Source: Candidatus Babelota bacterium
Lineage (GTDB): Bacteria > Babelota > Babeliae > Babelales > JAUPTZ01
Direction: 5' to 3'
Assembly (NCBI GenBank): GCA_030917815.1
Contig: JAUPTZ010000013.1
Location: forward strand, 3,109 to 67,108
DNA length: 64,000 nt
Position numbers and translations under genes: made by a program. Position 1 is the stretch's first letter. Each line of letters starts with the position of its first letter. Below the pieces are notes generated by a model. That model made no database searches. It worked only from the letters and a program-made list of their open reading frames with translations, and was not told where the DNA came from. Shown here in pieces: positions 36,872 through 62,678 of this stretch.

Positions 36872-36928
36872 TGCATTGACCTTTCAAATATCAGGGTAAT
36901 TTTCTCGAAGCGTACTAGTAGGCATACC

Positions 36929-43322: not shown

Positions 43323-43796
43323 CTAGCAGCTTTTAAAGGCACTCCCAAAAGTCTTCACTAGAACAGAAAGGTGCTCGACGATTTTCTGGGCATCGCTCTC
43401 TTGCGATGATTTCCCCGCTAGGGCCAAGGCCTGCAAAAGAATCCCGCCTGCCCTGCTCATGAGATCAACCATCTTCTGGTGAATATCGGCATACGCCTCG
43501 GGCACTGCAACTCTTATTATCCCTTTTTGCTCAGCCAGAAGCCGCGCCTTAAAGTAGTTGAGATTCGTATCACCTGAATTTATAAGTGAAGAAAGTGTTT
43601 CCACAAGTTGAGTATATTGCGCAGCAACGTCCGCATACGAAGCCTGAGTAGGATAAGCCATATACACAGGCATCCCATCAACAATAGGTGCACTCGCCAT
43701 CACCCCATATGTGGCCATTTTTTCATCGGCACAATCCATCGCATACGCAGCAACGCCCATACTGACACACAAACCAAAAACTACCTTTTTCATCAT
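43323..43796 (-). CDS. Small secreted helical protein (T2)
   Basis: MMKKVVFGLCVSMGVAAYA signal peptide, with AAGGAA 6 nt upstream of the ATG at 43796. Confidence 0.6.
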   Translation of the reverse strand: MMKKVVFGLCVSMGVAAYAMDCADEKMATYGVMASAPIVDGMPVYMAYPTQASYADVAAQYTQLVETLSSLINSGDTNLNYFKARLLAEQKGIIRVAVPEAYADIHQKMVDLMSRAGGILLQALALAGKSSQESDAQKIVEHLSVLVKTFGSAFKSC

Positions 43797-43873
43797 ATGG
43801 TATTCCTTAATGCAGATTAAAATAGAAGAGGCAGTAGCACCGTACAACACCGCCACCTCTTCAAAAAAAGTAT

Positions 43874-44465: not shown

Positions 44466-45080
44466 CTAACAACCAAACACTTCACGATACCGCTTAACCC
44501 GGCCTGAAACGATAAGGTCGCTGGCATATTTAGCATCAATCATGCTCAGTGCGTTGGCACCTAAAACAGAAATACAGGCATCATAGAACAATCGCATGAG
44601 CGCAAAAATGATGCGTCGACGCGATTCTGCAAATGAAAGCGGTATTTCCACCGAATCGGCCACTGCCGGAGAAGCATCACTGAAAAGCCGCCGCACGCAA
44701 GACTTGGTAGCGACATTCAAACGCATTCCTTGCTTCGCAACTTGCGGATGTCGATGATACTCATCACGATAGGCTACATACTTTGCAGAAAGGAAGCTAA
44801 GACTATTCCAAGCGGCCACCACATCGGCTTCTGCACGCATATTGTAGATCACCATAAATGCCTCACCAGCTTGCTCAACCGCTTGCTTTGCCTCTGCATA
44901 AGGAGATAGTGGTGACCCCGGTTCTTCTACAACCGCCGTGACGCCAACCGGATTAGGCGCACACACAAAAAAGGTAAATATACGCCGCATGGTAAGCTCA
45001 TCACACGAAACATCACCGGCCCATGTAACCGAATGCAAGGCACACGTAGCAAATACCGCCAAAAATAGTTTTTTATACAT
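44466..45080 (-). CDS. Small secreted helical protein (T4)
   Basis: MYKKLFLAVFATCALHSVTWA signal peptide; start at 45080. Confidence 0.6.
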   Translation of the reverse strand: MYKKLFLAVFATCALHSVTWAGDVSCDELTMRRIFTFFVCAPNPVGVTAVVEEPGSPLSPYAEAKQAVEQAGEAFMVIYNMRAEADVVAAWNSLSFLSAKYVAYRDEYHRHPQVAKQGMRLNVATKSCVRRLFSDASPAVADSVEIPLSFAESRRRIIFALMRLFYDACISVLGANALSMIDAKYASDLIVSGRVKRYREVFGC

Positions 45081-45213
45081 ACAAAAATTCCCCAATGCAT
45101 TTTCTAAAATACATACGGCTGTGTATAAGAAACTCTGGGACGGCGGAGTGTATCATAGAGAAAAAAAATAAGCGCACTTTTACATGCGCCTATTTTTTTA
45201 CGGTAAGTAGCTA

Positions 45214-46002
45214 CTAAAAGGTGAATGCTGCGTCAGGAGATTCTGCACGATCAAGCAGCCCAGGCTCAGGCAATGCGCCAAGCACCTCCTGAAGTAACGG
45301 ACCATACACCGCTTTAACTTTTCCAGCGAAAGTGCCCTTTTTTCTGGCATACGCCTCATACTCTCCTCTAAATTCCTCAGCAAAAGCTTTAAACTTCAAC
45401 TCTTCCCCAGACTTCCAAGATGCCGCAACACATGCAGAGTATAACGCCGGCAAATGCTTCGCCTGCGAAAAACGGTTAATCAGGCCCTGATACGCGATGC
45501 AATGTTCCGATAGAACCATATATACATCTTGGCAGAGTTGAAGCGCGCTTTTAAGAAACTCCACCATCTCATCTAACGTACAATCAAAACGCTTAGCAGA
45601 CCGAGGATCCAAGATATATATCATACAAGTTTCATCGATGAGCCGCATTAAATGCCCGCCATATTCAGCATGCCCCACAGAGCTGTCATAAAGACAGCCG
45701 CTCAAGTAATCGCTTAATTCTTCGCGGCCTCTCTCTGTTTCTTTTGCATAGAGTTGTTGCGGCGCCGCAACCAATGCAGCGAGATGCTGCATCTGCTTTG
45801 TTGTAAAATCGCGTCCACGTTTTGCTACCGCTGCCATTACTTTATCAACACGCTTCCTGAGTACCTTTTTTCGTGAAGACATCTTTTTTGTCTCTCCTGC
45901 AGATGAAGATACAACCGGAGAAATTGGCTCACTCGATGCACTGGCCAACACAGTGCCCCCAACACTAACCATAATCAACGCACTTACTATTATTTTGTAC
46001 AC
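45214..46002 (-). CDS. Secreted hypothetical protein (T5)
   Basis: GTG start at 46002 with AAGGGA 7 nt upstream. Signal-like YKIIVSALIMVSVGGTVLASA. Confidence 0.6.
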   Translation of the reverse strand: MYKIIVSALIMVSVGGTVLASASSEPISPVVSSSAGETKKMSSRKKVLRKRVDKVMAAVAKRGRDFTTKQMQHLAALVAAPQQLYAKETERGREELSDYLSGCLYDSSVGHAEYGGHLMRLIDETCMIYILDPRSAKRFDCTLDEMVEFLKSALQLCQDVYMVLSEHCIAYQGLINRFSQAKHLPALYSACVAASWKSGEELKFKAFAEEFRGEYEAYARKKGTFAGKVKAVYGPLLQEVLGALPEPGLLDRAESPDAAFTF

Positions 46003-46090: not shown

Positions 46091-46840
46091 TTAAACTTTT
46101 TTCGGCACTTCTGCCAAAAGACCATTAATATAGACTATCGCTTGCATAACTCTTTCAGTAAGCAAAGTAGTCAGCTTGGTAAACTCGTTCGTTAGCCGCA
46201 TCCCGGTACGTTGGCATTCATCATACTGCAACACCATACAGGCTTGAAACTCTCTTTTATACGCACGGGCGATACCAAGAAGCTTGGTCAAGGCACTGCT
46301 CTTGCTACACCTTCCCGCAGTACGGTAAGCGCTGTCGCTTTGCCTATATTCCCACTCTAAATCCAGAACCAGTTGCCATCGCTCGCGAAGAGTAAGCACC
46401 TCTGTAAGCATAGCGAGAACATCATGTTCATCTACGCCGCAGCGAGCTACTACTAATCTAGTAATGACTTTAATTAATGCAGCACGCTTCTCATCGTCCT
46501 CTGGAAAGTACACACAGAGACCAGTAAGACACCGCACGACTGCCAAAAGCTCTTCATCTTTAAAGCGTAAATCGGCCACTGCTCGCATAAATCCATACTG
46601 CTCAAACTGCATGAATACACCTTCAGCCACTTCACTCAAGTTTGTAGCCGCTTGTGGTTCAGCTACATGCCTAGCCACTACCGTCATGTCGGCCAGAAGC
46701 TTTGAGTAATCGACTTCCTTAGTAAAGACCGTTAACGATGGAGTGAGTTCCCCTGAGACGGATGAAGGAGAGTCAGCCGCGCTCAATCCATGAGCTAGGG
46801 CACACGAACATGCCAGTATCATCAGTATTTTTCTATGCAT
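46091..46840 (-). CDS. Secreted hypothetical protein (T6)
   Basis: MHRKILMILACSCALAHGLSA signal peptide with a helical body. Confidence 0.6.
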   Translation of the reverse strand: MHRKILMILACSCALAHGLSAADSPSSVSGELTPSLTVFTKEVDYSKLLADMTVVARHVAEPQAATNLSEVAEGVFMQFEQYGFMRAVADLRFKDEELLAVVRCLTGLCVYFPEDDEKRAALIKVITRLVVARCGVDEHDVLAMLTEVLTLRERWQLVLDLEWEYRQSDSAYRTAGRCSKSSALTKLLGIARAYKREFQACMVLQYDECQRTGMRLTNEFTKLTTLLTERVMQAIVYINGLLAEVPKKV

Positions 46841-48398: not shown

Positions 48399-48479
48399 GC
48401 GAATGTTCCTTTAAAACCGGTAAAATGCTCTGTAGGCTACCATACCTAAAAAAAATTTACGCTGAAATGCATTTTTCTA

Positions 48480-48508
48480 AAGACAATCGTTTTTTTATTG
48501 ATTATAAT
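48480..48508 (+). promoter_or_regulatory. Sigma70-type promoter of the tRNA-Arg/Ser/Ser cluster
   Basis: AAGACA-17 nt-TATAAT, 21 nt upstream of the tRNA-Arg 5-prime end. Confidence 0.5.
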
Positions 48509-48529
48509 CACACCTCGTTTTGAAATTTT

Positions 48530-48606
48530 GCGCCCATAGCTCAATTGGATAGAGTACCAGACTACGAATCTGGCGGTTATAGGTTCGACTCCTATTGGGC
48601 GCACCA
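48530..48606 (+). tRNA. tRNA-Arg (anticodon ACG)
   Basis: Acceptor GCGCCCA/TGGGCGC, anticodon stem CCAGA/TCTGG with loop CTACGAA, T-loop TTCGACT, encoded CCA. Confidence 0.9.
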
Positions 48607-48750
48607 ATTTACGCCAACGCGCCTGTGCCAAAGGCTCGGCACGTTGAGGCTTCAGCAGGCTACGCCGTTAAAGGCGCTCGCTGCTTGCCCGAAGATGTCT
48701 TTGAAAAACATTGAATTGTTGTTACACATGCGGTATAACGCATGTGTTGC
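48607..48750. repeat. Hairpin-rich spacer, probably related to the repeat family
   Basis: Hairpins gtgcc-aaaggctc-ggcac, agcag..cgcc-gttaaa-ggcg..ctgct and acacatgcg-gtataa-cgcatgtgt. Contains the family word acattgaattg (also at 13820 and, on the reverse strand, at 28848). Confidence 0.5.
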
Positions 48751-48842
48751 GGAGAGGTGGCTGAGTGGTCGAAAGCGCGCGCCTGCTAAGTGTGTATACT
48801 CGTAATTGGGTATCGAGGGTTCGAATCCCTCCCTCTCCACCA
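48751..48842 (+). tRNA. tRNA-Ser (anticodon GCT)
   Basis: Acceptor GGAGAGG/CCTCTCC, anticodon loop CTGCTAA, long variable arm, T-loop TTCGAAT, encoded CCA. Confidence 0.9.
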
Positions 48843-49102
48843 TCCTGCGCCGCTAAAGCGCAAGACAGATGGTGTCCGCCAAAGCTCCGATAGAGGAGCG
48901 CAGGAGGACCTGGCAGGTATCAGCTTCGCCATATGCTCGCTGATACCAAAAACAACCTCATCCATATATAGTACATTAAGCGACTGCGAGAGCATGCTCG
49001 TGGCAGACGCTGTGGCGGCACAGTCCGCCGGCAAAATTAACGTCAGCCGACACGTCGACGTCGGCACATCCCGCGGAGCGAGCAGCTCCTGCGAGTAACG
49101 AG
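48843..49102. repeat. Repeat-family composite filling the gap between the two tRNA-Ser genes
   Basis: The hairpin tcctgcgc...gcgcagga starts at the first base after CCA. gcgcaagacagatgg matches 30105-30119. 49026-49102 parallels 9596-9671. Confidence 0.8.
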
Positions 49103-49190
49103 GGAGAGATGGCAGAGCGGTTGAATGCGACGGTCTTGAAAACCGTTATGTTGAAAGGCATCGGGGGTTCGAATCCCTCTCTCTCCACCA
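49103..49190 (+). tRNA. tRNA-Ser (anticodon TGA)
   Basis: Acceptor GGAGAGA/TCTCTCC, anticodon loop CTTGAAA, long variable arm, T-loop TTCGAAT, encoded CCA. Confidence 0.9.
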
Positions 49191-49232
49191 TCCTGCGCCA
49201 CTAAAGCTCCGATAAAAAAGCGCAGGAGGACT
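49191..49232 (+). repeat. Short repeat-family hairpin directly after the tRNA-Ser(TGA) CCA
   Basis: tcctgcgc-cactaaagctccgataaaaaa-gcgcagga-ggac. The arms are the same as the hairpin at 48843-48905. Confidence 0.75.
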
Positions 49233-49354
49233 TCACTCTCTGTTCGCCAAAACCAAGATGAAACAATTCAATAAATCATATAAGCTATGTTTTGTAACAA
49301 TGAGTAATCGCAAAGGTCTACCTAAGCGATTGCTTACCAATCCTGGAGAACGAC

Positions 49355-50281
49355 ATGAAGCTTAATCGCGAACAACGTTCAACACTTTTTATTATATGTA
49401 TTTTCCTCGGTGGTACCGCACTCAACCTCTGTGCAAGCGATGAGCTTTGGCATAGAAATTTTAGCGCCGAAGGATTACTCACAGCGGCTGCGAGAAGAAA
49501 ATCAACTGCCATCGCTATCAAAGCGCCCCTCCCTCCTGTTGTCGACTGCTGCCCTTTAGGAACGGTGCAGGTATGCGACGCTGCCAGAATCAATGCCCTG
49601 ATAGCTGAGCGCTACGCCATGTCCAGCCGCACATTTGGCAAGAAATATGGGACATACAGAGCCAAAATATTCATCGGCGAAAAAGTAAGCCGTTCGTTTT
49701 TTGAAGGCACAAAGCGCTATCTCAGTTTTGATTCTTTTGTAAAGCAAGTGCTCGGGGTCTGTGGCCCCACCTGCTCACCGGAACAGCGCTTTAGTCCATT
49801 ACGCACCATCATAAACAATAATGGCATAGATACCGTGTATCTCCCAATCGTAGTCGACGCTTCAGGTAAAACGAGCCTAGACACAACCGCTCATTGCATC
49901 CTTGTCGAGACAAAATTTGATAGCACGCTGCAACGGATGCCAGCATCAACCAAAGAATTATGCGACGGATTATTCAACCAATCAATCAAAAAAATCCTCA
50001 GCTCTGTCATAGAAAAGTTAAACAGGGCAATACGTAGTGACAGCAGTGCAGAACAAACCGATTGCGCACAACATGCCATCGGACAATTTACGCTTTTTGC
50101 GCAAGCACTCGCCTGCGCTAACGTACTCCACGCAGCCACCGTTGTTGATACCAACGGTGCGGTGCATCTTTACCTGCTCACCAACCACGGACAAGCACCA
50201 CTTAAGGATAGCTCGGTCGATGCAGTAACAGCTGAACTATGCGGCCGCCTACCGGGACTTGGTCTATCATCTAAGAAATAA
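49355..50281 (+). CDS. Secreted protein, LYLP/HLYLL family member S1
   Basis: Signal-like STLFIICIFLGGTALNLCA. Motifs TVYLPIVVD and NGAVHLYLLTNHG are shared with S2 and S3. Confidence 0.7.
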   Translation: MKLNREQRSTLFIICIFLGGTALNLCASDELWHRNFSAEGLLTAAARRKSTAIAIKAPLPPVVDCCPLGTVQVCDAARINALIAERYAMSSRTFGKKYGTYRAKIFIGEKVSRSFFEGTKRYLSFDSFVKQVLGVCGPTCSPEQRFSPLRTIINNNGIDTVYLPIVVDASGKTSLDTTAHCILVETKFDSTLQRMPASTKELCDGLFNQSIKKILSSVIEKLNRAIRSDSSAEQTDCAQHAIGQFTLFAQALACANVLHAATVVDTNGAVHLYLLTNHGQAPLKDSSVDAVTAELCGRLPGLGLSSKK

Positions 50282-50309
50282 CTTATCTTTAATCACTTGG
50301 GGGGGCCTA

Positions 50310-51161
50310 ATGACTACAAAACTATCATTAATAGTACTGTGTACGTTATCGATATCGACACCTATTCTGTACGGTGCAGATATCGCACCAGTCGCGCTGG
50401 AAATGGACTTTGTATTTAGCAGGCCATACTACACTACTGACAAGGTACAGTCGGCAATTGCAGCTAGAGTTAGCAAGCATCATATTTCTCCCGAAACGGC
50501 CCAAAAAGCGATAGCTCTTGATGCCAAAGGCAACCTACTAAACACCGTGAGTGATTACTGCAGTTTTGAGGAATTCATACGCATCCTCACCGAGAAAGAC
50601 CCGCGCCATTTATTCAAAAAAACATCTGATAAAAGAGGCATTATCCACAATCTATACCTACCATTTAGTCTAAAAATAACACCAGCCCTTATCGTACCCG
50701 ATGCTGACGACTTCTCTCAGGTAATCCTTGCGCCAGCCGAAAAAGAGATAGAAATAAACATCGACCTAAAGCCTCTGATAACTGAATCTTTTTATGCAAG
50801 CGATGAAGAAATTCCTGAAGAACCACTGCCCCCAGTACAAAGACTAAAACCAGTTATAGATTTTATAGACAAACTCTGTGAGCACTATCACGCCAAAAAT
50901 GCTCAGTATTTTAGCGATCTTTACGACAACAGAGAAAATCGAGGCTCCTACCAACAAGTGTCAGCTCGATCACACATCATCGTCGAACTTGAATGTCTTC
51001 GTAGAATGCTCATCTCAAAAGAATTTTTGCACCTTATTGTCACTCTTGACTTCAAAGGGCAGGTAACCGTTCATGCGATACATGAAGCGGACACAGACTG
51101 TGCAACGCGTGAACTGGCCTGTGAGGAAGCTGCAGCGCTCTTTGGGCTAGATGCAGAGTAA
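50310..51161 (+). CDS. Secreted protein, LYLP/HLYLL family member S2
   Basis: The likely start is MTTKLSLIVLCTLSISTPILYGA at 50310, after a G-run RBS (ttggggggg). Motifs NLYLPFSLK and KGQVTVHAIHEAD. Confidence 0.7.
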   Translation: MTTKLSLIVLCTLSISTPILYGADIAPVALEMDFVFSRPYYTTDKVQSAIAARVSKHHISPETAQKAIALDAKGNLLNTVSDYCSFEEFIRILTEKDPRHLFKKTSDKRGIIHNLYLPFSLKITPALIVPDADDFSQVILAPAEKEIEINIDLKPLITESFYASDEEIPEEPLPPVQRLKPVIDFIDKLCEHYHAKNAQYFSDLYDNRENRGSYQQVSARSHIIVELECLRRMLISKEFLHLIVTLDFKGQVTVHAIHEADTDCATRELACEEAAALFGLDAE

Positions 51162-51254
51162 AAACAGTACGTGCAACATTTTTCTTCCCCAGCCAATAAC
51201 TCAATAAGTACACTACGTACACATCATTGGTTGTAATCATCTGGGGGGAACGTT

Positions 51255-52058
51255 ATGAATCAAAACTATACATCGCTGCTGCAGCTTGTGCTTGTCATTG
51301 CTGCAGTGCTCGCGCCAAGTTGCATGCAAGGCGCTGAAGATGCACCCCACGCAGAAAAAATGTTTCACAACGCATTCGTCACCCAAACAACGCTAGAGAA
51401 ACGGCATATCGGCTCCCACCCTCTCTTTGAAAATCGTGCCGCCATCATCAAGGCCATAGAGACTGAACTCAAGTATCAACATCGTGCACCAGAAGATTGC
51501 ACCGAAGGAATTGTCGAGGCCGCGATAAAAAGTGTAATGCAACGAGCAATAAGGGTAGCATTAGAAAAATCGAGTAATTACCTGAACATTGCAACGTTTT
51601 TGTATTTAAAAACAAAGGGGATCGCATTCAATCTCATCACCACTGAGGCACTCAGCAACCTCTACCTTCCCATCTCATGTGACCAAGGTGAGCTAAAAAT
51701 CGATCTAACACGACGATTCCTTATTGCAGAGACAGCCTGTCATCCAATTATCCAACGACCGGTAAAACTAACGGGAGTCGTCGGTGATGAAATGCAAGAG
51801 ATGCGTAATCTAATCATGTACCTCGATGGTGCGGTACAAACCCTAAAAAAAACCGCGCTCACACCAGTAGAAAGTAAAGAGGCAATCACCGTAGCCACAC
51901 ACTACGACAATAAAATACACAACATAGAGACTGCCACCTATGAATTGCTCGCGTTCTACAATGCACGATTAAGCCTGAGACATCTTATACGAGTAGCAAC
52001 CATTCTAGACGAAAGTGGCGTACTCCATCTCTACCTTCTCCATGAAACAGCCGATTAA
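51255..52058 (+). CDS. Secreted protein, LYLP/HLYLL family member S3
   Basis: Signal LLQLVLVIAAVLAPSCMQGA and a G-run RBS (ctgggggga). Motifs NLYLPISCD and SGVLHLYLLHETAD. Confidence 0.7.
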   Translation: MNQNYTSLLQLVLVIAAVLAPSCMQGAEDAPHAEKMFHNAFVTQTTLEKRHIGSHPLFENRAAIIKAIETELKYQHRAPEDCTEGIVEAAIKSVMQRAIRVALEKSSNYLNIATFLYLKTKGIAFNLITTEALSNLYLPISCDQGELKIDLTRRFLIAETACHPIIQRPVKLTGVVGDEMQEMRNLIMYLDGAVQTLKKTALTPVESKEAITVATHYDNKIHNIETATYELLAFYNARLSLRHLIRVATILDESGVLHLYLLHETAD

Positions 52059-52105
52059 GCAACAATAAAAGCGGCATGTACCGAACTTACTGAAAGATTA
52101 GCAGT

Positions 52106-52540
52106 ATGAAAACCTACCTTGCAGTTATTGAATGTGTCATAGAATATAACCACAAATTTCTCATCATTAGACGCCCAAACAACTCGCAGCAAGCGGCCGG
52201 ACTCCTTTCATTACCAGGCGGAACAGTTGAAGCACTGGATGAAGCTCATCGGTACGATATGCTTCGCAACGCGGTAAAGCGAGAAATCTTTGAAGAGCTT
52301 GGCTTTCATCTCGAAGATCCGATTGATTACGTCCTAACCAGCTATTTTGTGGATAACAAAGGCCGGCATGTCATCGATTCTATTTTTCATCACAAGCTCA
52401 CCAGCATGCCAATCATTATCCCTTCACCAATCGAAGTACCGGCGTACTATTGGATGACTATTGAAGAAATTAATAATGCACCACATGCGCCGGAATGGCT
52501 TAAGAAATATATCGGAGCGGCTCACCCGCGTTTAGTTTGA
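52106..52540 (+). CDS. NUDIX hydrolase
   Basis: The Nudix box GGTVEALDEAHRYDMLRNAVKREIFEELG fits GX5EX7REUXEEXGU. Confidence 0.85.
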   Translation: MKTYLAVIECVIEYNHKFLIIRRPNNSQQAAGLLSLPGGTVEALDEAHRYDMLRNAVKREIFEELGFHLEDPIDYVLTSYFVDNKGRHVIDSIFHHKLTSMPIIIPSPIEVPAYYWMTIEEINNAPHAPEWLKKYIGAAHPRLV

Positions 52541-53740
52541 TTTCTCAGCTAAATCACTCAAAAGCCATCGGCGCACTAAGAGCATACTCACACAAATCGC
52601 CAAGAAATAGAGTGGCATAACATACGGCGTCCCATTATGAAGAAGCCCTATGCCAAACGTCATAAGCGCTGCGATGAGGTAATAAATAAAGCCCAGAACG
52701 CTTGAGGCGGTTCCACTACACCAGCGATAATCGGCTAAAGCAACCGACAACGCACTGCTATTAACCAGGCATCGACCGGCCATTGAAACCATATGTGTTG
52801 CTAAAGTAACGCCAATGAGTGCCAACGAAGAAATCGGCGTGAAGTAGGTACTCACGGCCACACACGAAAAGATACCGGTTGAGGCAATCATCATCCAGAC
52901 ACCACCGTTCAAAACCTGGTCAACCTCATAGCGATCATGCAAATAACTCGCAAGTCGTCCGCCCGCTATCATAGCAATTGCAATAAAGATAAAGCTCATT
53001 CCATACCAGCTTGGAGAAAGCCCGAGAAGCTCAATTAAGTAAAAAGAACCTTCGGAGAAATAGCTGAACATAATGCCACCTACCGACCCAATGCACCAGG
53101 CATAGGCCATGACTCGCTTGTCTCTCAACAAGCGCCATAAAATGTCCACCAACGAAAAAGAACGACGATCATCATGATGAAGTGTTTCAGGCAACTGGAC
53201 CGCCGAAATACCGATCACTACTGCAGCAACCACCGTGAGCAGCAAAAATACATAGGACCAGCCCCATTGCTCCGCAATGAATCCCCCGACCATTGGCCCC
53301 ACCGCCGGTGGAACCCCTAATGCGCTCGACATAGCTGCATAGACCCGGCTCAGCGCCTTGCCATGAAACACATCGCGGCACATCGCCTGACCAATAACAC
53401 TTCCGGCACTTCCGCCAAAAGCCTGCACAAAACGACTCGCTAGCAGCAAATAAATAGAAGAGGAAAAATAGCACCCAACACACCCTATAAGATAGATGGA
53501 AATGCCAACGAGCATACTCGGCTTACGCCCCCAAAAATCCGAAATCTTCCCCCAAAAAAGCATGCCCAATGAAAAAGCAAAGAGATAAATAGTCAGCGTA
53601 TATTCGACCATCGAAACCGAGGTATTCAACGCATGCGCAATATCGGGCAATGAAGGTGAATACACCGTTTCTGAAAATTGAGGAAGCCCTACCAGAGTAA
53701 AAAGTAGCCACAGCGCCGGCTGAGCAGCAGAAGATTGCAT
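52532..53740 (-). CDS. MFS transporter (Bcr/CflA-like drug:H+ antiporter type)
   Basis: 12-TM pattern and the loop motif GKISDFWGRKP (MFS motif A). The likely start is MQSSAAQPALW at 53740 with AGGA 8 nt upstream. Confidence 0.8.
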   Translation of the reverse strand: MQSSAAQPALWLLFTLVGLPQFSETVYSPSLPDIAHALNTSVSMVEYTLTIYLFAFSLGMLFWGKISDFWGRKPSMLVGISIYLIGCVGCYFSSSIYLLLASRFVQAFGGSAGSVIGQAMCRDVFHGKALSRVYAAMSSALGVPPAVGPMVGGFIAEQWGWSYVFLLLTVVAAVVIGISAVQLPETLHHDDRRSFSLVDILWRLLRDKRVMAYAWCIGSVGGIMFSYFSEGSFYLIELLGLSPSWYGMSFIFIAIAMIAGGRLASYLHDRYEVDQVLNGGVWMMIASTGIFSCVAVSTYFTPISSLALIGVTLATHMVSMAGRCLVNSSALSVALADYRWCSGTASSVLGFIYYLIAALMTFGIGLLHNGTPYVMPLYFLAICVSMLLVRRWLLSDLAEKSN

Positions 53741-53828
53741 AACAAAAATCCTAAAATATAAAAAATTAAAGCGGTCCCTTTTATACTCTAAAAAAGAATA
53801 AAACGGTAGTGCAAGTGTGTATGAATAG

Positions 53829-53876
53829 AAAATATCCTGGTGCCGTCCCCCAAACACAGAGGCACCAGGATATTTT
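53829..53876 (-). terminator. Long perfect hairpin terminator after the 434-aa MerR gene
   Basis: aaaatatcctggtgcc-16 nt-ggcaccaggatatttt (16-bp stem), followed on the minus strand by TTTTCTATT. Confidence 0.65.
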
Positions 53877-53881
53877 AGGCT

Positions 53882-55186
53882 TTAAGCGGTTGCTTTTGGT
53901 CTATAGAAAAAAACATAGGCCGCTCGTATCCAGTCATTAACTGCCGAAGAGTTAGACCCACCCATCAGAGGCCCCTCAATCATCGGCACGAGCACCCCGG
54001 TACGCGTATGCACCGTATCGAGCGCCTCTTGTATTATAGCCTGGCGCTTTTTGCGCTCTTCATCAAGCTCAACCCCAAAACCCCCTGCTATAGCTGAAAA
54101 AACAATGCGATGGTGACGTGAGTTATGCATAAGACCGGCTAAATTCTCGATTTGCCTATGTATCTTAAGAAGCAGCTGCTGGCCCGCATCACCGGTAGGA
54201 TCTGTATCAAGATGCTGCACGATACTCTGCTGACACGCAGAGAGCTCTTGTAGTGCATCGACAAAAGCGGCATCAGATGCAATAGCGGTATAATGCTCAA
54301 TCCATTCAGCGAGTTGATTATCCCCAGAAGGCAGCGAATTCTCCGGCAACGCTGCGTAGGCAACCTGTGCTTTTTGCATCCACGCAGACATTTCAGGAGT
54401 TGGCGTTACGGGTACTATCGAAAATTTACTACCCACCAGAGCAGAAACAGGCTCATGAACCGCCGCCGCCAACTCCAAAAACGTCTTATTCATCTCTTGC
54501 GCCTTACGGGCCAATCCGGTAAATATGGCCGTAATCTCACTACGCTCAGCTTCTGTCTTCTTGTTCATATAGGTAGATAAATACTGAGTATTCGCATTCG
54601 CCTTCACTACCCAGTCCATAGCAAACTGACCGGTCGGATCTTGCGCAAGATTATCTTGCAACTCAGATAATGCCGCATAATGATCCCTCATATAGGCCGC
54701 ATACTCCTTATCTTTATAGAGAACGGTAAAGTACTCTATAAGCTGTTTCAATTCCTCATCATTAAGAATTTGGGCTACTTGTGTGTCTTTAAATGCATCT
54801 ATCATGGAATAGACCTCAGTTATATCGATTATCGTTTGCCAATCAACCGACTTCTGCTCCTCGCATTTAACAATGGCAACATCCAATGCCTCACTTGCGC
54901 TCAACATCGCCTGTGCTTTTTTGCGCAGCAAGGTTGCTTGAACACGTAAATGAGCCACGGTAGAGATCTCTTTTCCTAAAATTTCTTTGATCTGAACAAG
55001 TTCAAATCCTAAAAACTTTAACGCCAAGATCTGCTGCAACCGTTGTAAGTCGGCCTCAGAGTACAAGCGATAGCCATTATCCAATCGTATACTCGGCTTG
55101 AGTAAATTAATCTCATCATAATGATGCAGCGTGCGCACCGAAATGCGCATTAATTTACTCAGCTTTCGTACTAACCATTGTGCCAT
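53882..55186 (-). CDS. TipA/Mta-like MerR-family regulator with duplicated C-terminal effector domain
   Basis: The HTH SVRTLHHYDEINLLKPSIRLDNGYRLYSEADLQRLQQILALKFLGF is typical of the TipAL/Mta subgroup. The C-terminal half contains two related segments (LQDNLAQDPTGQFAMDW and VQHLDTDPTGDAGQQLL). Confidence 0.8.
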   Translation of the reverse strand: MAQWLVRKLSKLMRISVRTLHHYDEINLLKPSIRLDNGYRLYSEADLQRLQQILALKFLGFELVQIKEILGKEISTVAHLRVQATLLRKKAQAMLSASEALDVAIVKCEEQKSVDWQTIIDITEVYSMIDAFKDTQVAQILNDEELKQLIEYFTVLYKDKEYAAYMRDHYAALSELQDNLAQDPTGQFAMDWVVKANANTQYLSTYMNKKTEAERSEITAIFTGLARKAQEMNKTFLELAAAVHEPVSALVGSKFSIVPVTPTPEMSAWMQKAQVAYAALPENSLPSGDNQLAEWIEHYTAIASDAAFVDALQELSACQQSIVQHLDTDPTGDAGQQLLLKIHRQIENLAGLMHNSRHHRIVFSAIAGGFGVELDEERKKRQAIIQEALDTVHTRTGVLVPMIEGPLMGGSNSSAVNDWIRAAYVFFYRPKATA

Positions 55187-55241: not shown

Positions 55242-56084
55242 CTATTTTGCCGCTTCATAAGCTGCCAGTATCCAGTGCATCATTTCAACGGTCATGTCGG
55301 GTCCCAGCTGAACCTTCACGCCAGAGCGCTGCACCGCAAGCCGTATTGCTTTTGATATAAGCTCTACAATGTCCTGTTGCTGCTGCTTGCTCCGCTTTGC
55401 AAAACCGGCGTAAAGCAATGTACCGATAACCTCTTGTGCCTTTTCTCTATGCACTGAGGGTATGCTACCCATGAGAGTACCATACGCCCGCCAACGCATG
55501 CCCCACTCTTTGCCAATTGAGCTGTGAGGATCAACCCCATCGGCCATAAGCACTTTAAGCTCTTCAAGAAGCACCCGCTCCTCATGCATAAGGTCCAAGA
55601 ATTTTCGATCTCTGCTCAGGGCCGCATAATATTCAACCAAATCCCTTAGCTGAGATTCACTCAAAAAGTTCTCATACAGCTCTTTACGCAATGCATCTGC
55701 CATAGAATATACCTCGGTTATATGGACTACTATTTTCCAATCGACCGATTCCCGTTTCTCACAGCGAGCGATCGCACTCTCAAGCGCTTCACGAGCATGC
55801 AATAAAGCCTCTGCTTTTTGTAGCAAAAGATCTGATTGAAGTTGTAAATGGGCAAGCGATGATGATTCGGCCGCTAAAACTTTCTTAATTTGATCTAACC
55901 CAAATCCTAAAAACTTTAAGGCCAAAATCTGCTGTAGTCGTTGTAAATCGATCTCAGAGTAGAGGCGATAGCCATTATCCAGGCGTAAACTTGGCTTGAG
56001 TAAACCAATGCGATCATAATGATGCAATGTCCGCACCGAAATGCGCATAAGCTTACTCAGCTTGTGTATCAACCATTGGGCCAT
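55242..56084 (-). CDS. TipA/Mta-like MerR-family regulator (280 aa)
   Basis: The N-terminal 115 aa are about 75 percent identical to the neighbouring regulator. A single C-terminal effector-type domain carries LMADGVDPHSSIGKEWGMRW. Confidence 0.8.
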   Translation of the reverse strand: MAQWLIHKLSKLMRISVRTLHHYDRIGLLKPSLRLDNGYRLYSEIDLQRLQQILALKFLGFGLDQIKKVLAAESSSLAHLQLQSDLLLQKAEALLHAREALESAIARCEKRESVDWKIVVHITEVYSMADALRKELYENFLSESQLRDLVEYYAALSRDRKFLDLMHEERVLLEELKVLMADGVDPHSSIGKEWGMRWRAYGTLMGSIPSVHREKAQEVIGTLLYAGFAKRSKQQQQDIVELISKAIRLAVQRSGVKVQLGPDMTVEMMHWILAAYEAAK

Positions 56085-56806: not shown

Positions 56807-57163
56807 ATGAGCGAACCACACAAAACGACACAAATCGTCCTCATTTATACAACGGTGTCATCGCGTGAACAAGCCGAGACGATTGCGCGTGCCGTAGTTA
56901 CTGAGCACTTAGCGGCATGTGTGAATATCATGCCCGGAGTTACTTCGTTTTGCTCGTGGAACAATGCGGTAGCAAAGGAAGAGGAATACCTCATCATACT
57001 TAAAACCGGCATTGCACAAAAAACAGCCCTCCTCTCGTGGCTTGACACGCATCACCCCTATACCGTACCGGTACTTTTGAGTGGCTCGGTTGAGGTGAAT
57101 GAAAAATTTGCTCATTTCGTACAATCAGCACTGCACACCAGAAAGGACTTGAATGCCCGATAA
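56807..57163 (+). CDS. cutA: Divalent-cation tolerance protein CutA
   Basis: LAACVNIMPGVTSFCSWNN...EEEYLIILKT...HPYTVP matches the CutA1 family pattern. Confidence 0.8.
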   Translation: MSEPHKTTQIVLIYTTVSSREQAETIARAVVTEHLAACVNIMPGVTSFCSWNNAVAKEEEYLIILKTGIAQKTALLSWLDTHHPYTVPVLLSGSVEVNEKFAHFVQSALHTRKDLNAR

Positions 57164-57710
57164 CGTCATAGTCACCGAACGAATCGTGCTCCGCCACTGG
57201 CGTGAAAGCGACTTTGAGGCATTTTTTGCCATGAATACCGATCCACGGGTCATGGAATTTCTTGGCGAACCGCATACACGAGAAAAATCTAAAGCCGCTT
57301 TTCAACGCATGCAAGATCATATACAAGCACATGGCTTTGGCTTTTGGGCCGTCGGCCTGGTTGATAAACCAGAGAGTTTTATCGGCTTTGTTGGCACCGG
57401 TCATATCGGTTTTGAAGCTCACTTCACCCCGGCCGTTGAAATTGGCTGGCGACTGCTGCCGCAATACTGGGGGCATGGCTATGCAACCGAAGCGGCAAAA
57501 GCGGCTCTCGACTACACCTTTAGCAAAGGGATTGCTGAGGTCGTGGGCTGCACCATCCCGGCAAACGTACGTTCGCAGAATGTTATGCATAAAATTGGTA
57601 TGGAGCGAGATTTCGCCGGCGACTTTAACCATCCCCGCGTTGAGGTCGGCCATCGGCTTGCACCCCATTGGCTGTATCGCATCAAAAATACAGGCATTCT
57701 TCCGCGCTAA
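57153..57710 (+). CDS. GNAT-family N-acetyltransferase (RimJ/RimL-like)
   Basis: TERIVLRHWRESDFEAFFAMNTDPRVMEFLG and QYWGHGYATEAAKAALDY motifs. Overlaps cutA by 11 nt. Confidence 0.8.
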   Translation: MPDNVIVTERIVLRHWRESDFEAFFAMNTDPRVMEFLGEPHTREKSKAAFQRMQDHIQAHGFGFWAVGLVDKPESFIGFVGTGHIGFEAHFTPAVEIGWRLLPQYWGHGYATEAAKAALDYTFSKGIAEVVGCTIPANVRSQNVMHKIGMERDFAGDFNHPRVEVGHRLAPHWLYRIKNTGILPR

Positions 57711-57854
57711 TTAGCCTTTGATCACCCAGAACGGTTGCGCCTTAACCCACAAGCATGTTACACTAATAGAATATAGTCGAACACGGCCAGCTCTATTCAA
57801 GACAATAAATGCAGATAAGGCTTTTGCGCGGCGAGTTCAAGGGGGGTAAAGAGA

Positions 57855-59120
57855 ATGAGAAAAAATATAATTATACCGTATTTTTTTGCTACGATTCTTA
57901 TTGCAACCGCCTATCCACTGCAGGCCCGATGGAACCACCTCGCCACCGCCGGCGTAGCGGTTGCCGGACTCAACTTAGCCGCACAGCTAGCAGACAAAAA
58001 GCAGCGCACTGCATTGTTTAAGGCAAGCACACGCACCAATCAAACGCCTTTCACCGCTCGTATGCGTATGGCATTATTGACCGGATTGCCCTTGGCAGCT
58101 GCACTTATCTATGCATTAACTGGACAACTACCAGCACCGCAAAAAACAGCCACCCCGCCGGCCACTAAACCACTCAGCAAGCCTCAAGAACAACCGATAG
58201 TTCCTCCAGCAGCAAAGCCGACTGCCACCGAGGCACAGAAAAAAGCACTTGGGGAAAAAGTATTAAGCACCTATCGAACCTACGTAAACAATAAAAAATA
58301 TAAGAAAGAGCAGCCATTTAGAAATCTAGTAACGCAAGCAACAACGGCACAAGAAACAAGAACCGCTCTTGAACAAGCGGCCACCAACACCATCATCGAA
58401 AACTACCGTACTATCCGTCATAACCGACAGGGAGCAAGATTTCGGGACGTGGTAGAGCGCGCTCAGGCAGAAGAACGAGATCGCATTGCCCTAGAAGCTG
58501 AAATCGCCCGTTTCGGAGCAGAAGCAGCAGCACAGCGTGTACGAGAAGAAGCGGAACGAATTGAACGGGAACAACGAGTGCATGAAGAGCGCGTAACCAC
58601 TCAAGTAAAGGTTATAACCGATCAACTTGAACAAGTTTTAGAATCTACCGATATTGTAGTCAGCCTCAAAGACGAAATTACAGCCGAATATGAACGTATG
58701 AAAACTCTTCTGACAAGCGGTGGTGCCGCCTTAAGAAATGCAACCACACCAAGCGAGGCTCAGCAGGCAGGTGAGAATGTGCTACGTAATCTTCAAGCCG
58801 CACAAGATGCTGTTGAATCAGCGCAGCGATTAGCTCGATCTGCTCAGGCTGAAGCCGAAGGTATACGGGAAGCATCTCGAACCCTGTACAATCAGCATAC
58901 AGCCTTTGGCCTTGCCGAGCGAACTGCTCCACTGCGTGACACCGCTATGCAAACAGCCGAACAGGCACAGATGGCCGCCCAGGAAGCTGCCGAACGAGTA
59001 CACATGATCAGAGGAAGAACAAGATACGCCATACTGATGGCTCGTGAGTCAATTACCGCGGCACGGAGAACCTTTCCTGGACTAAGTATTATGCCGCCCG
59101 ACTATCCTGATGAAAACTAA
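57855..59120 (+). CDS. Membrane-anchored Pro-rich/coiled-coil protein, unknown function
   Basis: Three N-terminal hydrophobic segments, the linker PAPQKTATPPATKPLSKPQEQPIVPPAAKPTATE, then about 280 aa of A/E/R/Q-rich heptad-like sequence. Confidence 0.65.
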   Translation: MRKNIIIPYFFATILIATAYPLQARWNHLATAGVAVAGLNLAAQLADKKQRTALFKASTRTNQTPFTARMRMALLTGLPLAAALIYALTGQLPAPQKTATPPATKPLSKPQEQPIVPPAAKPTATEAQKKALGEKVLSTYRTYVNNKKYKKEQPFRNLVTQATTAQETRTALEQAATNTIIENYRTIRHNRQGARFRDVVERAQAEERDRIALEAEIARFGAEAAAQRVREEAERIEREQRVHEERVTTQVKVITDQLEQVLESTDIVVSLKDEITAEYERMKTLLTSGGAALRNATTPSEAQQAGENVLRNLQAAQDAVESAQRLARSAQAEAEGIREASRTLYNQHTAFGLAERTAPLRDTAMQTAEQAQMAAQEAAERVHMIRGRTRYAILMARESITAARRTFPGLSIMPPDYPDEN

Positions 59121-59773
59121 TCAAGCTCTTTCGAGGCTGCCGCGACAGTATTCGATCGATACCATTGGAACTGTACGCACAACACAATGCAATACCCAAC
59201 CGCACGCAAACCATTGAATACGCTCTGTATCGGTAGGTTAAGCAGAAACGAAATAATCATCTCCATGAATCCGGCAAAACCCAACATCGAAATGTAGGCA
59301 AAGCTTAACCCTTTAACACTCTTGCGGGCATGATTTTTGAGTACTTGCGGTAGCTGAGTAAAAATCTGTACCACGACCGAGATCCATCCCATTGCATTAC
59401 CAATCGCATCGGGATACCACCAAGCGACAGCTAACATTGCGGCGGTAACGACATGAAGCACCACGTATGAGGCAACCAGAAATGTGCGTGCCTCTTTATC
59501 GCGACAATAGTAAAAGCATTGCATCACCAAGATGCTAATATTAAACATTAACAACGGCTCCATCACTCGACAGGCAAGGGGAAGCATCAGTAAAAAAGTG
59601 TAGACAGTCGTAGCCATGTTACCGGTGTAATCAAAAAACACCATCCGATAACTCAACCCTGACGTAGAACGATTTTTATAATTCAACAAAATTTGCGGAA
59701 TCCCGGCAAAATAATAAATAGTGAATGGAATCCAGGCTGTCCAGCCGTACGAAATAACACTCAACTCGGCCAT
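59117..59773 (-). CDS. Seven-TM PQ-loop repeat protein, paralog 1
   Basis: Two PQ motifs: IPQILLNYKNRSTSGLS and LPQVLKNHARKSVKGLS. Confidence 0.8.
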   Translation of the reverse strand: MAELSVISYGWTAWIPFTIYYFAGIPQILLNYKNRSTSGLSYRMVFFDYTGNMATTVYTFLLMLPLACRVMEPLLMFNISILVMQCFYYCRDKEARTFLVASYVVLHVVTAAMLAVAWWYPDAIGNAMGWISVVVQIFTQLPQVLKNHARKSVKGLSFAYISMLGFAGFMEMIISFLLNLPIQSVFNGLRAVGYCIVLCVQFQWYRSNTVAAASKELD

Positions 59774-59782
59774 ATAAATCCC

Positions 59783-60409
59783 TTACGATGCTCTCTTCTT
59801 TTTACTAAACGATGCAAATTGATAGATAAAGATCGTATAGACTAACAGACCTCGCACCGCATTCAAAACACTTTGTATTGGCAAGAGCCGCCAGTAAGCA
59901 ATTCCAAGCTCAGCACATGCGGCCGAACCAAGCATAACTACATACCAAATACTCAATCCTTCAACGCTTTTTTCTCGCTGATTTTTAATAAGCTGCGGCA
60001 ATTGAAAAATCGCGTATAAAATCGTAAAAAGCCACCCGGTTGAAAAGCCAACCTCAAGTGGGTACATGCCACCCCAAAAAAGAACGGCCAAGGCGATAGT
60101 AACCACCGCAGCGTAGCTGTACGCGATCTCTTTCGAGACACTTTTACGCCCGCTATACCAAAATTCCTGCAAAGCCAACATCGTCCATGCCAATAAAATG
60201 AGTGGATGCATAACCCGATACGCAAACGGCAGGCACATAAAATGGTCGTACAAGAGAGAACACATAAGGCCACTAATGCCCAAAAAAACCGTCCATTGGC
60301 TTAAGCTTTTGGTCGATTGCTTACACCAATTCAAATAAACCTGAGCTAACGGTGCACCGCAAAAGAGGATCATCGGAATCCAGGCAATATACTCGGATAA
60401 ATGAATCAT
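59783..60409 (-). CDS. Seven-TM PQ-loop repeat protein, paralog 2
   Basis: First motif is degenerate (APLAQVYLNWCKQSTKSLS); second is LPQLIKNQREKSVEGLS. Confidence 0.8.
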   Translation of the reverse strand: MIHLSEYIAWIPMILFCGAPLAQVYLNWCKQSTKSLSQWTVFLGISGLMCSLLYDHFMCLPFAYRVMHPLILLAWTMLALQEFWYSGRKSVSKEIAYSYAAVVTIALAVLFWGGMYPLEVGFSTGWLFTILYAIFQLPQLIKNQREKSVEGLSIWYVVMLGSAACAELGIAYWRLLPIQSVLNAVRGLLVYTIFIYQFASFSKKKRAS

Positions 60410-60496
60410 GAATAAAACCTTGGTAATGCGCCTATACGCGTTTTTATCGATAGGCAGCAGTACACCATAAAACGACCTGGTGAAAACAGATATTAT

Positions 60497-61141
60497 CTAT
60501 TTTGCACCACTGTTGCCTGACGCAGTAGCACTAGAACGATTGCGATAGATAAAAAACTGCGCTAGATAAATCAAATAACAGGTCGTGACGCGCAAGGTCG
60601 CTAGTATCGTTGGCATTGGCAACCCGTAGTAGAGGGAAAGCGACAAATCACATATCCCTCCCCACCCAATGGCCGATGAAAACAGAATATTAAAACCAAC
60701 CGTACTTTTACGTTTCCAATTTCGATAAATCTGCGGCATATCGGACATGACACCGGTAATAACTGCTAACCAACCGCCAAGCATCCCGGCCTGTAGCGGA
60801 TACCACTGGCTAAAAATAAGCAGCGCAACCAGCGTAGAAACCAGCTTAAGATAACAGAAGCGGAGCCACCGTTGCTCGTGCCAGATCTTATCGTAAAAAT
60901 ATCCCTGTAGCGCCAAAACAATAATACCGGAAAGACAGGCCGGATAGAGCACTTTATGCGCCAAAGGAAGGTTCAACAGATAGACATATACCGTATAGGT
61001 AGAAACCGCAAAAATACGGAGAAATAGCATCCAGGCGCTTAATCCAACCGCATCACCACGACGATAATTGGTTAAGATTTGAGGCCACGATGCCACCGTG
61101 TATAACGATATTGGCACCCACATTAATACGGTATAGTCCAT
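60497..61141 (-). CDS. Seven-TM PQ-loop repeat protein, paralog 3
   Basis: WPQILTNYRRGDAVGLS and MPQIYRNWKRKSTVGFN. The likely start is MDYTVLMWV at 61141; the track ORF extends to 61204, overlapping pepA. Confidence 0.8.
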   Translation of the reverse strand: MDYTVLMWVPISLYTVASWPQILTNYRRGDAVGLSAWMLFLRIFAVSTYTVYVYLLNLPLAHKVLYPACLSGIIVLALQGYFYDKIWHEQRWLRFCYLKLVSTLVALLIFSQWYPLQAGMLGGWLAVITGVMSDMPQIYRNWKRKSTVGFNILFSSAIGWGGICDLSLSLYYGLPMPTILATLRVTTCYLIYLAQFFIYRNRSSATASGNSGAK

Positions 61142-61169
61142 CAAGTACCTTTCTAGTGTCGCGATGACC

Positions 61170-62678
61170 TTATTTATTGGCCATATATCGACGTACAAAC
61201 TCAACCATTACGCGAACACCGGTTCCGGTTGCGCCCTTACCTAAATACGTTGTACCAGGAATTTTGCTGTCGGTACCAGCAATATCAAGGTGAGCCCAAC
61301 GACGACCTTTATCAATGAAATGCTCAAGGAACAAGGCGGCTGTAATCGCGCCGGCTTTGTAGGTTTGCGATCCAGAGTTTGAAATATCAGCAACGGTTGA
61401 TTCAATAGCCGGCTTATATTCGTCAGACAACGGCAACGGCCACACCTTATCACCGACAAAGAATCCGATATCGGTTAATTCTTTGGCCAATTCTTCGTCC
61501 CGCGTCATAAGACCGGCATAGAAAGGCCCAAAGGTTGCGGCGCATGAACCGGTTAGTGTTGCAATATCGATCACTACGGCCGGATCAAATTTCTTTTGTA
61601 CATAGCACAATGCATCGGACAAGATGAGGCGCCCTTCCGCATCGGTATTTTCAATTTCAACATGCAAGCCATTCATTGCGGTCACCACGTCATCTTGCTT
61701 ACTTGCTCTGCCACTTGGCATATTTTCAACCAACGGCGCAATACCAACAACCCGAACATTTGGTTTAATTTGAGCAATAATTTGTAACGCCGCAAAGACG
61801 GCGGCCGCGCCGGACATATCATACTTCATGCCGGTCATATAGTTGGATGGCTTCAGGCTGATACCACCGGTATCAAAACACACCCCTTTACCCACCAACG
61901 CGATCACCGGAGCGTTTGCATTGTTCACCGGTGCATACTCAAGCATTACAATCTTGCCTTCATGCTCAGAACCTTTTGCTACCGAGTAAAAGCAACCCAT
62001 GCCCATCGCGCGAGCTTCTTCTTGCTCAATAACCGTATATCCAAGGCCAAATTCTTTAGCGATACTAGCGGCTTTTTCGGCCATAACGGCCGGATACATA
62101 TGGTTGCCTGGGGTGTCGGCAAGCGTACGAGCCATGTTCATTGCTTCACCCACCAATGAACCGGTCTTGAGTGTTTCGGCTTTGGTCACATCGGTTGCCG
62201 TAATAAACAGCGATGGCTCCCATAATTTCTTATCTTTTTTAAATGTGCTGTAATGGTAGCTGGCAAGGTGCAACACGGTCGCAATTTGCTCTAAGTAAAC
62301 GTCACACGAAAGACCAAACGGTTTTGGTGCAGGAACACAGACAAGAATTTCTTGGGCTCCGGTTGCTTGAAGGTGATTGTAGCCGCTGCCCAACGCACGT
62401 CGCAGCGTCTCCATATTCTCAACCGATTTTTTATCAAGATCACCAAGACCCACAAAAACAAACGGTATCCCATTAACCACATGGACGCACGACTGCCCCG
62501 CCTTGCCCATAAATTTCATCGCTTTAAATACCGCGGCAAGATCAACACCCTTAAGATAAGGTGCGATAGCGTCACTCGTTAAAGAATTAAAGGTGGTTGA
62601 AATTTCCGAAGCCATAACCGGAACGAGAACAGCACCTATTGTTTGTGCCGCTGATTGAAATGATACTGAAATGCTCAT
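61170..62678 (-). CDS. pepA: Leucyl aminopeptidase (M17)
   Basis: VGKGVCFDTGGISLKP, NTDAEGRL and the GATG region are M17 hallmarks. Confidence 0.93.
   Translation of the reverse strand: MSISVSFQSAAQTIGAVLVPVMASEISTTFNSLTSDAIAPYLKGVDLAAVFKAMKFMGKAGQSCVHVVNGIPFVFVGLGDLDKKSVENMETLRRALGSGYNHLQATGAQEILVCVPAPKPFGLSCDVYLEQIATVLHLASYHYSTFKKDKKLWEPSLFITATDVTKAETLKTGSLVGEAMNMARTLADTPGNHMYPAVMAEKAASIAKEFGLGYTVIEQEEARAMGMGCFYSVAKGSEHEGKIVMLEYAPVNNANAPVIALVGKGVCFDTGGISLKPSNYMTGMKYDMSGAAAVFAALQIIAQIKPNVRVVGIAPLVENMPSGRASKQDDVVTAMNGLHVEIENTDAEGRLILSDALCYVQKKFDPAVVIDIATLTGSCAATFGPFYAGLMTRDEELAKELTDIGFFVGDKVWPLPLSDEYKPAIESTVADISNSGSQTYKAGAITAALFLEHFIDKGRRWAHLDIAGTDSKIPGTTYLGKGATGTGVRVMVEFVRRYMANK

Follow-up and report, generated by a model that had tools for sequence, protein, structure and literature searches.

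Directly downstream of a tRNA cluster, a 64-kb stretch of DNA (the window, whose numbering is used throughout) encodes three consecutive forward-strand open reading frames (ORFs), S1, S2 and S3, that NCBI lists as "hypothetical protein QG604_760/761/762". The source is a metagenome-assembled genome labeled Candidatus Dependentiae by NCBI. The locus raises the question of what these three proteins are: whether they form one family, whether they leave the cytoplasm, and what they might do for a host-dependent bacterium. The reading favored here, to which we assign a probability of roughly 0.55, is that S1, S2 and S3 are genuine genes, probably transcribed together, whose products are Sec-exported, soluble α/β proteins. 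These would make up a single orphan family, restricted to its lineage and created by tandem duplication. Judged from their sequences, the three are an unannotated orphan family with signal-peptide-like N-termini, new as a family and an ordinary phenomenon for the phylum. The ORFs are as follows.

49355 to 50281, forward strand: S1, an ORF of 308 amino acids (NCBI MDQ5890886.1, hypothetical protein)
50310 to 51161, forward strand: S2, an ORF of 283 amino acids from the ATG at 50310 (NCBI MDQ5890887.1)
51255 to 52058, forward strand: S3, an ORF of 267 amino acids (NCBI MDQ5890888.1)

An earlier description made from the DNA letters (the sequence-only reading) had named three tandem ORFs of these sizes and positions, and all three are found there on the same strand. 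Their boundaries (308, 283 and 267 amino acids) are identical in public gene calls on independent assemblies. The locus is present at 100% identity in six Logan assemblies, all of which come from one run series. S2 has an alternative start codon, the TTG at 50259, that would give 300 amino acids; the 283-residue form is the public gene call. Codon usage scores best in frame 0 for S1, S2 and S3, with values slightly under those of reference genes. The three look like genuine genes, given their long intact ORFs and a full-length ortholog of S1, named P0004, in a second genome.

S1 and S3 are clearly homologous at the sequence level. BLASTP aligns them with E = 2e-7 over 139 amino acids, a region that spans two hydrophobic motifs, LYLP in the middle of the protein and HLYLL near the C-terminus. 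The Smith-Waterman score of their mature parts is 99, compared with 32 ± 5 for shuffled sequences (z = 13), and none of 1000 shuffles reaches it. S2 is the most diverged member, is acidic, and carries a 20-residue insertion after the LYLP motif. Scored with a hidden Markov model (HMM) of S1, P0004 and S3, S2 comes out best of the window's 240 six-frame ORFs, yet only at E = 0.023. Semi-global scores of S2 are higher (z = 4.9 against S3 and 5.5 against S1) because the weak segments of similarity are collinear. When S2 is aligned semi-globally to 30 real proteins encoded in the window, its best partners are S1 and S3 (z = 5.3 and 5.25), and the next one reaches 3.45. The AlphaFold2 (AF2) models of S2 and S1 have an identical element order, H-H-E-H-H-E-E-E-H-H-E-E-H, an agreement that is not fully independent, as family members are in the S2 alignment. 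S2 is probably a strongly diverged paralog of S1 and S3. The sequence-only reading had presented all three as tandem paralogs, which stands for S1 and S3 and becomes a probable relationship for S2.

P0004 is the only relative of the trio found beyond the source genome. An exhaustive HMMER scan with a profile of the three mature proteins covered 1.84 billion cluster representatives of ~15 billion proteins and returned S1, S2, S3 and P0004, a 281-residue protein with E = 7e-12. How large the family is and how widely it is distributed can therefore be stated for these representatives: four members in two related genomes are visible. P0004 also matches S3 (E = 4e-4), and apart from it the protein searches gave no homolog of S2 or S3 outside the source genome. 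Word-indexed protein searches yielded, among the matches listed, the window's own proteins, and missed some of those. DNA scans of GTDB genomes and JGI metagenomes with S1 or with an S1 and P0004 alignment gave no further member. A metagenome scan with the conserved MFS transporter gene that neighbors the locus gave one 1.25-kb contig, which stops short of the locus. Across the protein and DNA scans, P0004 is the only relative found in other Dependentiae genomes, and the 64-kb window holds no additional paralog.

The sequence-only reading had proposed a previously unrecognised family with no assignable function, and the database searches agree: no characterised domain was found in Pfam, NCBIfam, PHROGs, PADLOC, PDB or BFVD. 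In the first four, no match reached E ≤ 0.05 save one meaningless NCBIfam match of S2, which scores 17 bits against a cut-off of 439 bits. PDB sequence profiles queried with three alignments returned noise (for example interleukin-15 and a designed protein, with E-values of at least 0.08). Structure prediction followed by Foldseek gave the S1 model no significant match in PDB or BFVD. Its top match, the archaeo-eukaryotic primase-polymerase C962R of African swine fever virus (ASFV), was rejected as noise (E = 0.06-0.08, TM-score 0.22-0.24, root-mean-square deviation ~15 Å).

All of the motifs quoted by the sequence-only reading are present in the proteins, and they hold up in a proper alignment, recurring in the independent homolog P0004. 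The four sequences align at a mid-protein Y-[LV]-P strand motif and at a C-terminal D-x-x-G β-hairpin motif, and five residues are invariant in all four (Y134, P136, E157, D237 and G240 in the numbering of mature S1). S1 contains a YLPIVVD strand, an LD..H....ETKF block and the C-terminal β-hairpin AATVVDTNGAVHLYLL. S3 contains an LYLPISCD strand, and its C-terminal hairpin ends the protein. The C-terminal motif had been placed about 20-40 residues from the end of each protein; the motif itself holds, and this distance fails for S3, where only 5 residues separate HLYLL from the C-terminus.

The AF2 model of mature S1, built from the four-sequence alignment, has a mean predicted local distance difference test (pLDDT) score of 66 and a predicted template modeling (pTM) score of 0.69, with a core above 80. 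The S2 model is of low confidence (pLDDT 53, pTM 0.48). In the S1 model, the LYLP motif forms the β-strand 132-139, followed by two short strands with LD148 and ILVE157-T-K159. A long helical hairpin (171-225) comes next, and then a β-hairpin (229-248) that corresponds to the AATVVD-xxG-xHLYLL motif. Both motifs lie on the β-strands with the highest pLDDT, and in this model LYLP and HLYLL are hydrophobic strands of the central sheet.

Export was assessed with a crude Kyte-Doolittle hydropathy test of our own, not with SignalP. S1, S2, S3 and P0004 each have a hydrophobic N-terminal segment with an 11-residue maximum of 2.5-3.1 and no later transmembrane-like segment. The signal-like N-terminus of S1 covers approximately residues 1-28. 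Small residues follow the hydrophobic region (h-region) in each of the four proteins, with CAS|D, YGA|D, QGA|E and CAS|T as the candidate cleavage sites. No canonical lipobox, [LVI][ASTVI][GAS]C, can be read in any of the four. Where the h-region ends, the S1 sequence reads L-N-L-C and that of P0004 F-S-T-C, neither of them canonical at -1; S2 lacks a cysteine there, and S3 has one (P-S-C) but no lipobox ahead of it. Mature S1 and mature P0004 contain ten cysteines each, five of them at aligned positions, a content that fits oxidative folding outside the cytoplasm. We infer that the three proteins are secreted from just two features, the signal-like N-termini and the many cysteines of S1 and P0004. 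The sequence-only reading had given each protein a signal peptide; by hydropathy the hydrophobic segment is there in all three, and in S3 the basic n-region of a signal peptide is missing. A further shared element, [LM]-x-H-[RQN]-[NA]-F, stands just past the predicted cleavage site in S1 (31-36), S3 (36-41) and P0004 (32-37) and is absent from S2. The S1 model has low confidence in this part, and the element might be a sorting or maturation signal.

The second genome gives a measure of how far this family has diverged. P0004 is encoded on a 5.9-kb Logan contig, L007, that starts at the 3′ end of the same tRNA-Ser, and its start codon is 20 nt past the CCA end of this tRNA. S1 and P0004 align over their full length (E = 2e-32), and P0004 is, from alignment and position, the positional ortholog of S1. 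Identities between the window and L007 are as follows.

MFS transporter and its L007 ortholog: 78% identity
Three PQ-loop proteins and their L007 orthologs: 71-72% identity
GNAT and its L007 ortholog: 47% identity
S1 and P0004: 27% identity

At 27% against the 71-78% of the MFS and PQ-loop proteins, S1 is therefore far more diverged than its neighbors. The gene content of this interval differs as well. Between tRNA-Ser and the MFS gene, the window encodes S1, S2, S3 and a NUDIX hydrolase, and L007 encodes P0004, an unrelated 479-residue ORF and GNAT. The 479-residue ORF (L007 1020-2459, forward strand) takes the place of S2, S3 and NUDIX and has no counterpart in the window. Read by eye, it has a hydrophobic N-terminus and an internal hydrophobic stretch, and it has no Pfam match. 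That this ORF is a fused or diverged S2/S3 was rejected (hhalign probability 0.3%, no tblastn signal).

The order of genes and signals around the trio is given here, from left to right.

48530 to 49190, forward strand: cluster of tRNA-Arg(acg), tRNA-Ser(gct) and tRNA-Ser(tga), found by ARAGORN and by Rfam tRNA matches, directly upstream of S1
49191 to 49354, forward strand: S1 leader, in which the trailer that follows tRNA-Ser forms a hairpin, another long hairpin lies at ~49301-49336, and the ribosome-binding site GGAG is at ~49345
50299 to 50305, forward strand: run of seven G (G7), similar to a Shine-Dalgarno (SD) sequence, 4 nt before the S2 start codon
51243 to 51248, forward strand: run of six G (G6), SD-like, 6 nt before the S3 start codon
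52106 to 52540, forward strand: NUDIX hydrolase gene (Pfam NUDIX, 2.7e-10), 47 nt after S3 and without a signal peptide
52532 to 53857, reverse strand: MFS transporter gene (Pfam MFS_1, 1.2e-44), the conserved right anchor of the variable interval
57841 to 57846, forward strand: third run of at least six G, 8 nt before the ATG of an unrelated 421-residue ORF (57855-59120)

The placement of the trio immediately after tRNA-Arg/Ser/Ser, as the sequence-only reading had it, is confirmed by ARAGORN and Rfam. The tRNA cluster is the conserved left anchor of the locus, as the same tRNA-Ser 3′ end is found directly before P0004 in L007. The intergenic gaps S1-S2, S2-S3 and S3-NUDIX are 28, 93 and 47 nt, and no terminator-like site was found on the forward strand across 48400-52700. 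Given these gaps and the lack of such a site, S1, S2 and S3 are probably co-transcribed, and NUDIX is likely the last gene of the same unit.

The ribosome-binding site of S1 is a plain GGAG, unlike the G-runs of S2 and S3. On the forward strand of the 64 kb there are three runs of at least six G, all of them 4-8 nt before an ATG. The G-run is a genome-level SD-like variant rather than a family trait, as the third run precedes the unrelated gene at 57855. The sequence-only reading had noted a G-run ribosome-binding region common to S2 and S3; it is present, and as a mark of the family it fails. The lengths of the G7 and G6 tracts are invariant over the six Logan assemblies. Phase-variable poly-G tracts were considered and rejected, as the tracts are short and show no length variation in the six assemblies. 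The 421-residue ORF after the third run has a hydrophobic N-terminus and one later transmembrane-like segment, is flagged as membrane, and has no Pfam match.

The S1 leader and the tRNA genes have structural features of their own. The leader (49186-49360) folds with -46.8 kcal/mol (z = -5.3 against shuffles) and has a long hairpin immediately 5′ of the GGAG. The fold is not a conserved one, because the leader of the L007 ortholog is only 20 nt long after the tRNA. A hairpin-forming trailer, 85-92% identical between its copies, follows both tRNA-Ser genes on the forward strand (48843-48909 and 49191-49231; UCCUGCGC…GCGCAGGA) and may serve the tRNA cluster in processing or termination. On the reverse strand, antisense to the tRNA genes (48530-48840 and 49138-49187), there are sub-threshold Rfam matches to the plastid untranslated-region families RF04351 and RF04354. 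These are most likely artefacts of tRNA-like sequence inside those models.

If the favored reading is correct, signal peptidase I would cut the N-terminal signal sequence of each precursor, releasing mature proteins of ~240-280 amino acids that would fold outside the cytoplasm, S1 and its ortholog probably with several disulfides. The predicted fold would be a β-sheet, with LYLP and HLYLL as hydrophobic strands, packed on the long helical hairpin. The proteins might then act in the periplasm, at the cell surface or in a host compartment as binding or host-interaction proteins, and such an external role could drive very fast divergence and gene turnover. Export, disulfides, operon structure, site of action and a role in host interaction are all points that we infer. 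The window and the published data for the phylum both fit this reading. Of the 53 listed ORFs of the window, the hydropathy test flags 11 as soluble and signal-like and a further 25 as membrane proteins. Signal peptides are reported on 44% of coding sequences in Chromulinavorax destructans, with ORFans enriched among them (PMC6561590). The most economical reading for a Dependentiae bacterium that depends on a host is a role at the envelope or host interface.

Several observations weigh against the reading of S1, S2 and S3 as one exported, host-facing family. S3 has no lysine or arginine before its h-region. Membership of S2 is marginal in local Smith-Waterman alignment (p ~0.03 against either partner), and hhalign of S2 against the profile of S1, P0004 and S3 is non-significant (E = 0.06). 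The low identity of S1 and P0004 could reflect relaxed constraint, or out-paralogy with differential loss, instead of an arms race. Nothing at the locus separates periplasmic housekeeping from a host-directed role, and no secretion-system gene or eukaryote-like domain linked to the locus was found.

The strongest of the other explanations, though clearly less probable than the favored reading, takes the three proteins for ordinary residents of the periplasm or envelope (structural, chaperone-like, or substrate-binding accessory) that have no host role and diverge quickly from weak constraint. Sec signal peptides take proteins only as far as the periplasm, nothing at the locus looks like a dedicated signal or system for secretion across the outer membrane, and envelope and membrane proteins dominate the window, where tandem envelope paralogs also occur at 34826-39022. 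Envelope proteins with housekeeping roles, however, tend to be conserved throughout a phylum, whereas this family is confined to two related genomes, differs in copy number between them, and diverges (S1/P0004) far more than its neighbors do. It is very improbable that a mobile element or genomic island, integrated at tRNA-Ser, brought in the trio as its cargo. The location directly 3′ of a tRNA-Ser gene would suit such an island, as would the differing gene content between tRNA-Ser and MFS in the two genomes, but the only matches of the tRNA-Ser 3′ end are the two tRNA genes themselves, att-like repeats are lacking, and neither an integrase nor another mobility gene is found in the interval, nor an integrase among the flanking genes. 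Moreover, the GC content and codon usage of the interval resemble the rest of the window, and an S1 ortholog at the same position in L007 argues for vertical descent with local turnover. A mobile island at the tRNA is thus largely refuted, and the interval is read, on sequence grounds, as locally unstable and vertically inherited. More improbable still is that at least one ORF, S2 especially, is non-functional, either a decaying duplicate or a chance ORF. Such an ORF could explain why S2 and S3 have no homolog outside the genome, why codon scores are slightly low, and why the S2 model has low confidence. It fits poorly with three uninterrupted ORFs of 267-308 codons, each with an SD-like site at the right distance, a clearly best frame 0 and an intact signal-like N-terminus, identical in six independent assemblies.

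A more specific proposal concerns the fold, and it is unlikely, though better placed than the last two. The family would be an extremely diverged form of the restriction-endonuclease-like PD-(D/E)XK fold. S1 and its ortholog would then be exported nucleases that depend on metal and break down the nucleic acids of the host for nucleotide scavenging, with S2 and S3 as catalytically dead paralogs and NUDIX as the enzyme that processes the imported nucleotides. The S1 model runs helix, three-strand meander, helix or helices, and strand(s), an order that fits the αβββαβ core of these nucleases, and S1 shows an E…D…ExK pattern in E89 (at a helix end), D140 and E157-x-K159. P0004 retains the E, D148 and an E-A-K, E157 is invariant in all four proteins, and LDxTxHxxxxExKFxS is the densest block conserved between S1 and P0004. 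Most of the top PDB matches of the S2 model in Foldseek, all non-significant, also have this fold (tRNA splicing endonucleases, Exo5, McrC, SfsA, RecB and HincII). The model behind them has a pLDDT of 53, however, the best Foldseek values are E 0.06-0.16 with TM-scores ≤0.24, and these nucleases do not come up with the better S1 model, whose top matches are the ASFV primase-polymerase at a TM-score of 0.22. The full D…ExK triad (D140, E157 and K159) is found in S1 only and is incomplete in three of the four members: P0004 has Q at 140, S3 has E-T-A and S2 has E-S-F. No Pfam match appears even at E ≤ 10. The likeness to these nucleases lies in element order and in the S1 residues, and neither sequence nor structure comparison gives a significant match. 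Members of this superfamily do not usually carry a Sec signal peptide. In Dependentiae, secreted nucleases and cytoplasmic NUDIX hydrolases have been proposed to act in the scavenging of host biopolymers (PMC6561590), which would suit this proposal. A slightly wider form of the idea is about as doubtful: the proteins would be Sec-exported with either an extremely diverged PD-(D/E)XK fold or else a new fold, and in the former case S1 and its ortholog would be secreted nucleases that digest host nucleic acids for a nucleotide-auxotrophic Dependentiae parasite, with S2 and S3 as inactivated paralogs, turned into binding proteins and diversifying under host pressure.

The rest of the window contains other duplicated and unannotated genes. 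The tandem envelope paralogs mentioned above are a reverse-strand pair at 34826-36871 and 36929-39022, of 681 and 697 amino acids and 69% identity, with signal-like N-termini. Each has one later transmembrane-like segment by hydropathy and, by eye, a hydrophobic C-terminal stretch, and tandem duplication of envelope or exported proteins thus recurs in the source genome. Two adjacent MerR-family regulator genes lie beyond the MFS gene (53882-55186 and 55242-56084, reverse strand). Their 5′ 211 nt are 81% identical (54976-55186/55874-56084), and the repeat extends to the 46 nt upstream (55194-55239/56091-56136), so the pair seems to stem from a fairly recent tandem duplication in which the promoter region was copied too. 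The PQ-loop membrane paralogs are three adjacent genes (59117-61204, reverse strand). Each has a 71-72% identical ortholog in L007, and their triplication therefore predates the split of the two genomes. The ORFs at 57000-57668 (reverse strand) and 57153-57710 (forward strand) overlap on opposite strands. The forward ORF is probably the real gene of this pair, because it is 47% identical to the L007 GNAT acetyltransferase and the reverse ORF has no Pfam match. Upstream of the tRNA cluster, four signal-like ORFs without a Pfam match are found on the reverse strand (43323-43856; 44466-45095, flagged as membrane; 45214-46002; 46091-46840). The last two were considered as mutual relatives and rejected, as they show no similarity.

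Dependentiae are widespread and almost uncultured protist parasites or symbionts, and their host-manipulation toolkit consists largely of unannotated exported proteins. The S1-S3 locus is a small, testable example: it has four members, a predicted α/β core of moderate confidence, and a fixed place between tRNA-Ser and MFS. It could serve as a marker of gene turnover in this lineage and is a candidate for effector or nuclease assays. Alone, it changes no current view. Fast-evolving exported ORFans are expected in Dependentiae, and the trio is less unusual than the sequence-only reading had implied. The main additions are the rate contrast with neighboring genes, the turnover at a fixed chromosomal position, and the weak nuclease-fold lead.

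Tandem, rapidly diverging exported protein families are a general phenomenon in obligate intracellular bacteria. The S family shares with them tandem paralogs, a putative export signal, lineage restriction, fast divergence relative to flanking genes, and copy-number differences between relatives. It differs in that it shows no homology to any of them, no link to a type III or type IV secretion system, and neither an autotransporter domain nor a eukaryote-like one. A closer comparison is the class of signal-peptide ORFans of Dependentiae, which are known to abound in this phylum and are described in Chromulinavorax destructans (Deeg et al. 2019, PMC6561590). S1, S2 and S3 resemble these proteins in phylum (by the NCBI label), in the N-terminal signal-like sequence, in having no recognisable domain, and in a presumed extracytoplasmic role. 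Unlike the S family, those ORFans are a protein class and not a homologous family, and to that class the S-locus adds a tandem triplication and a measured contrast in rate.

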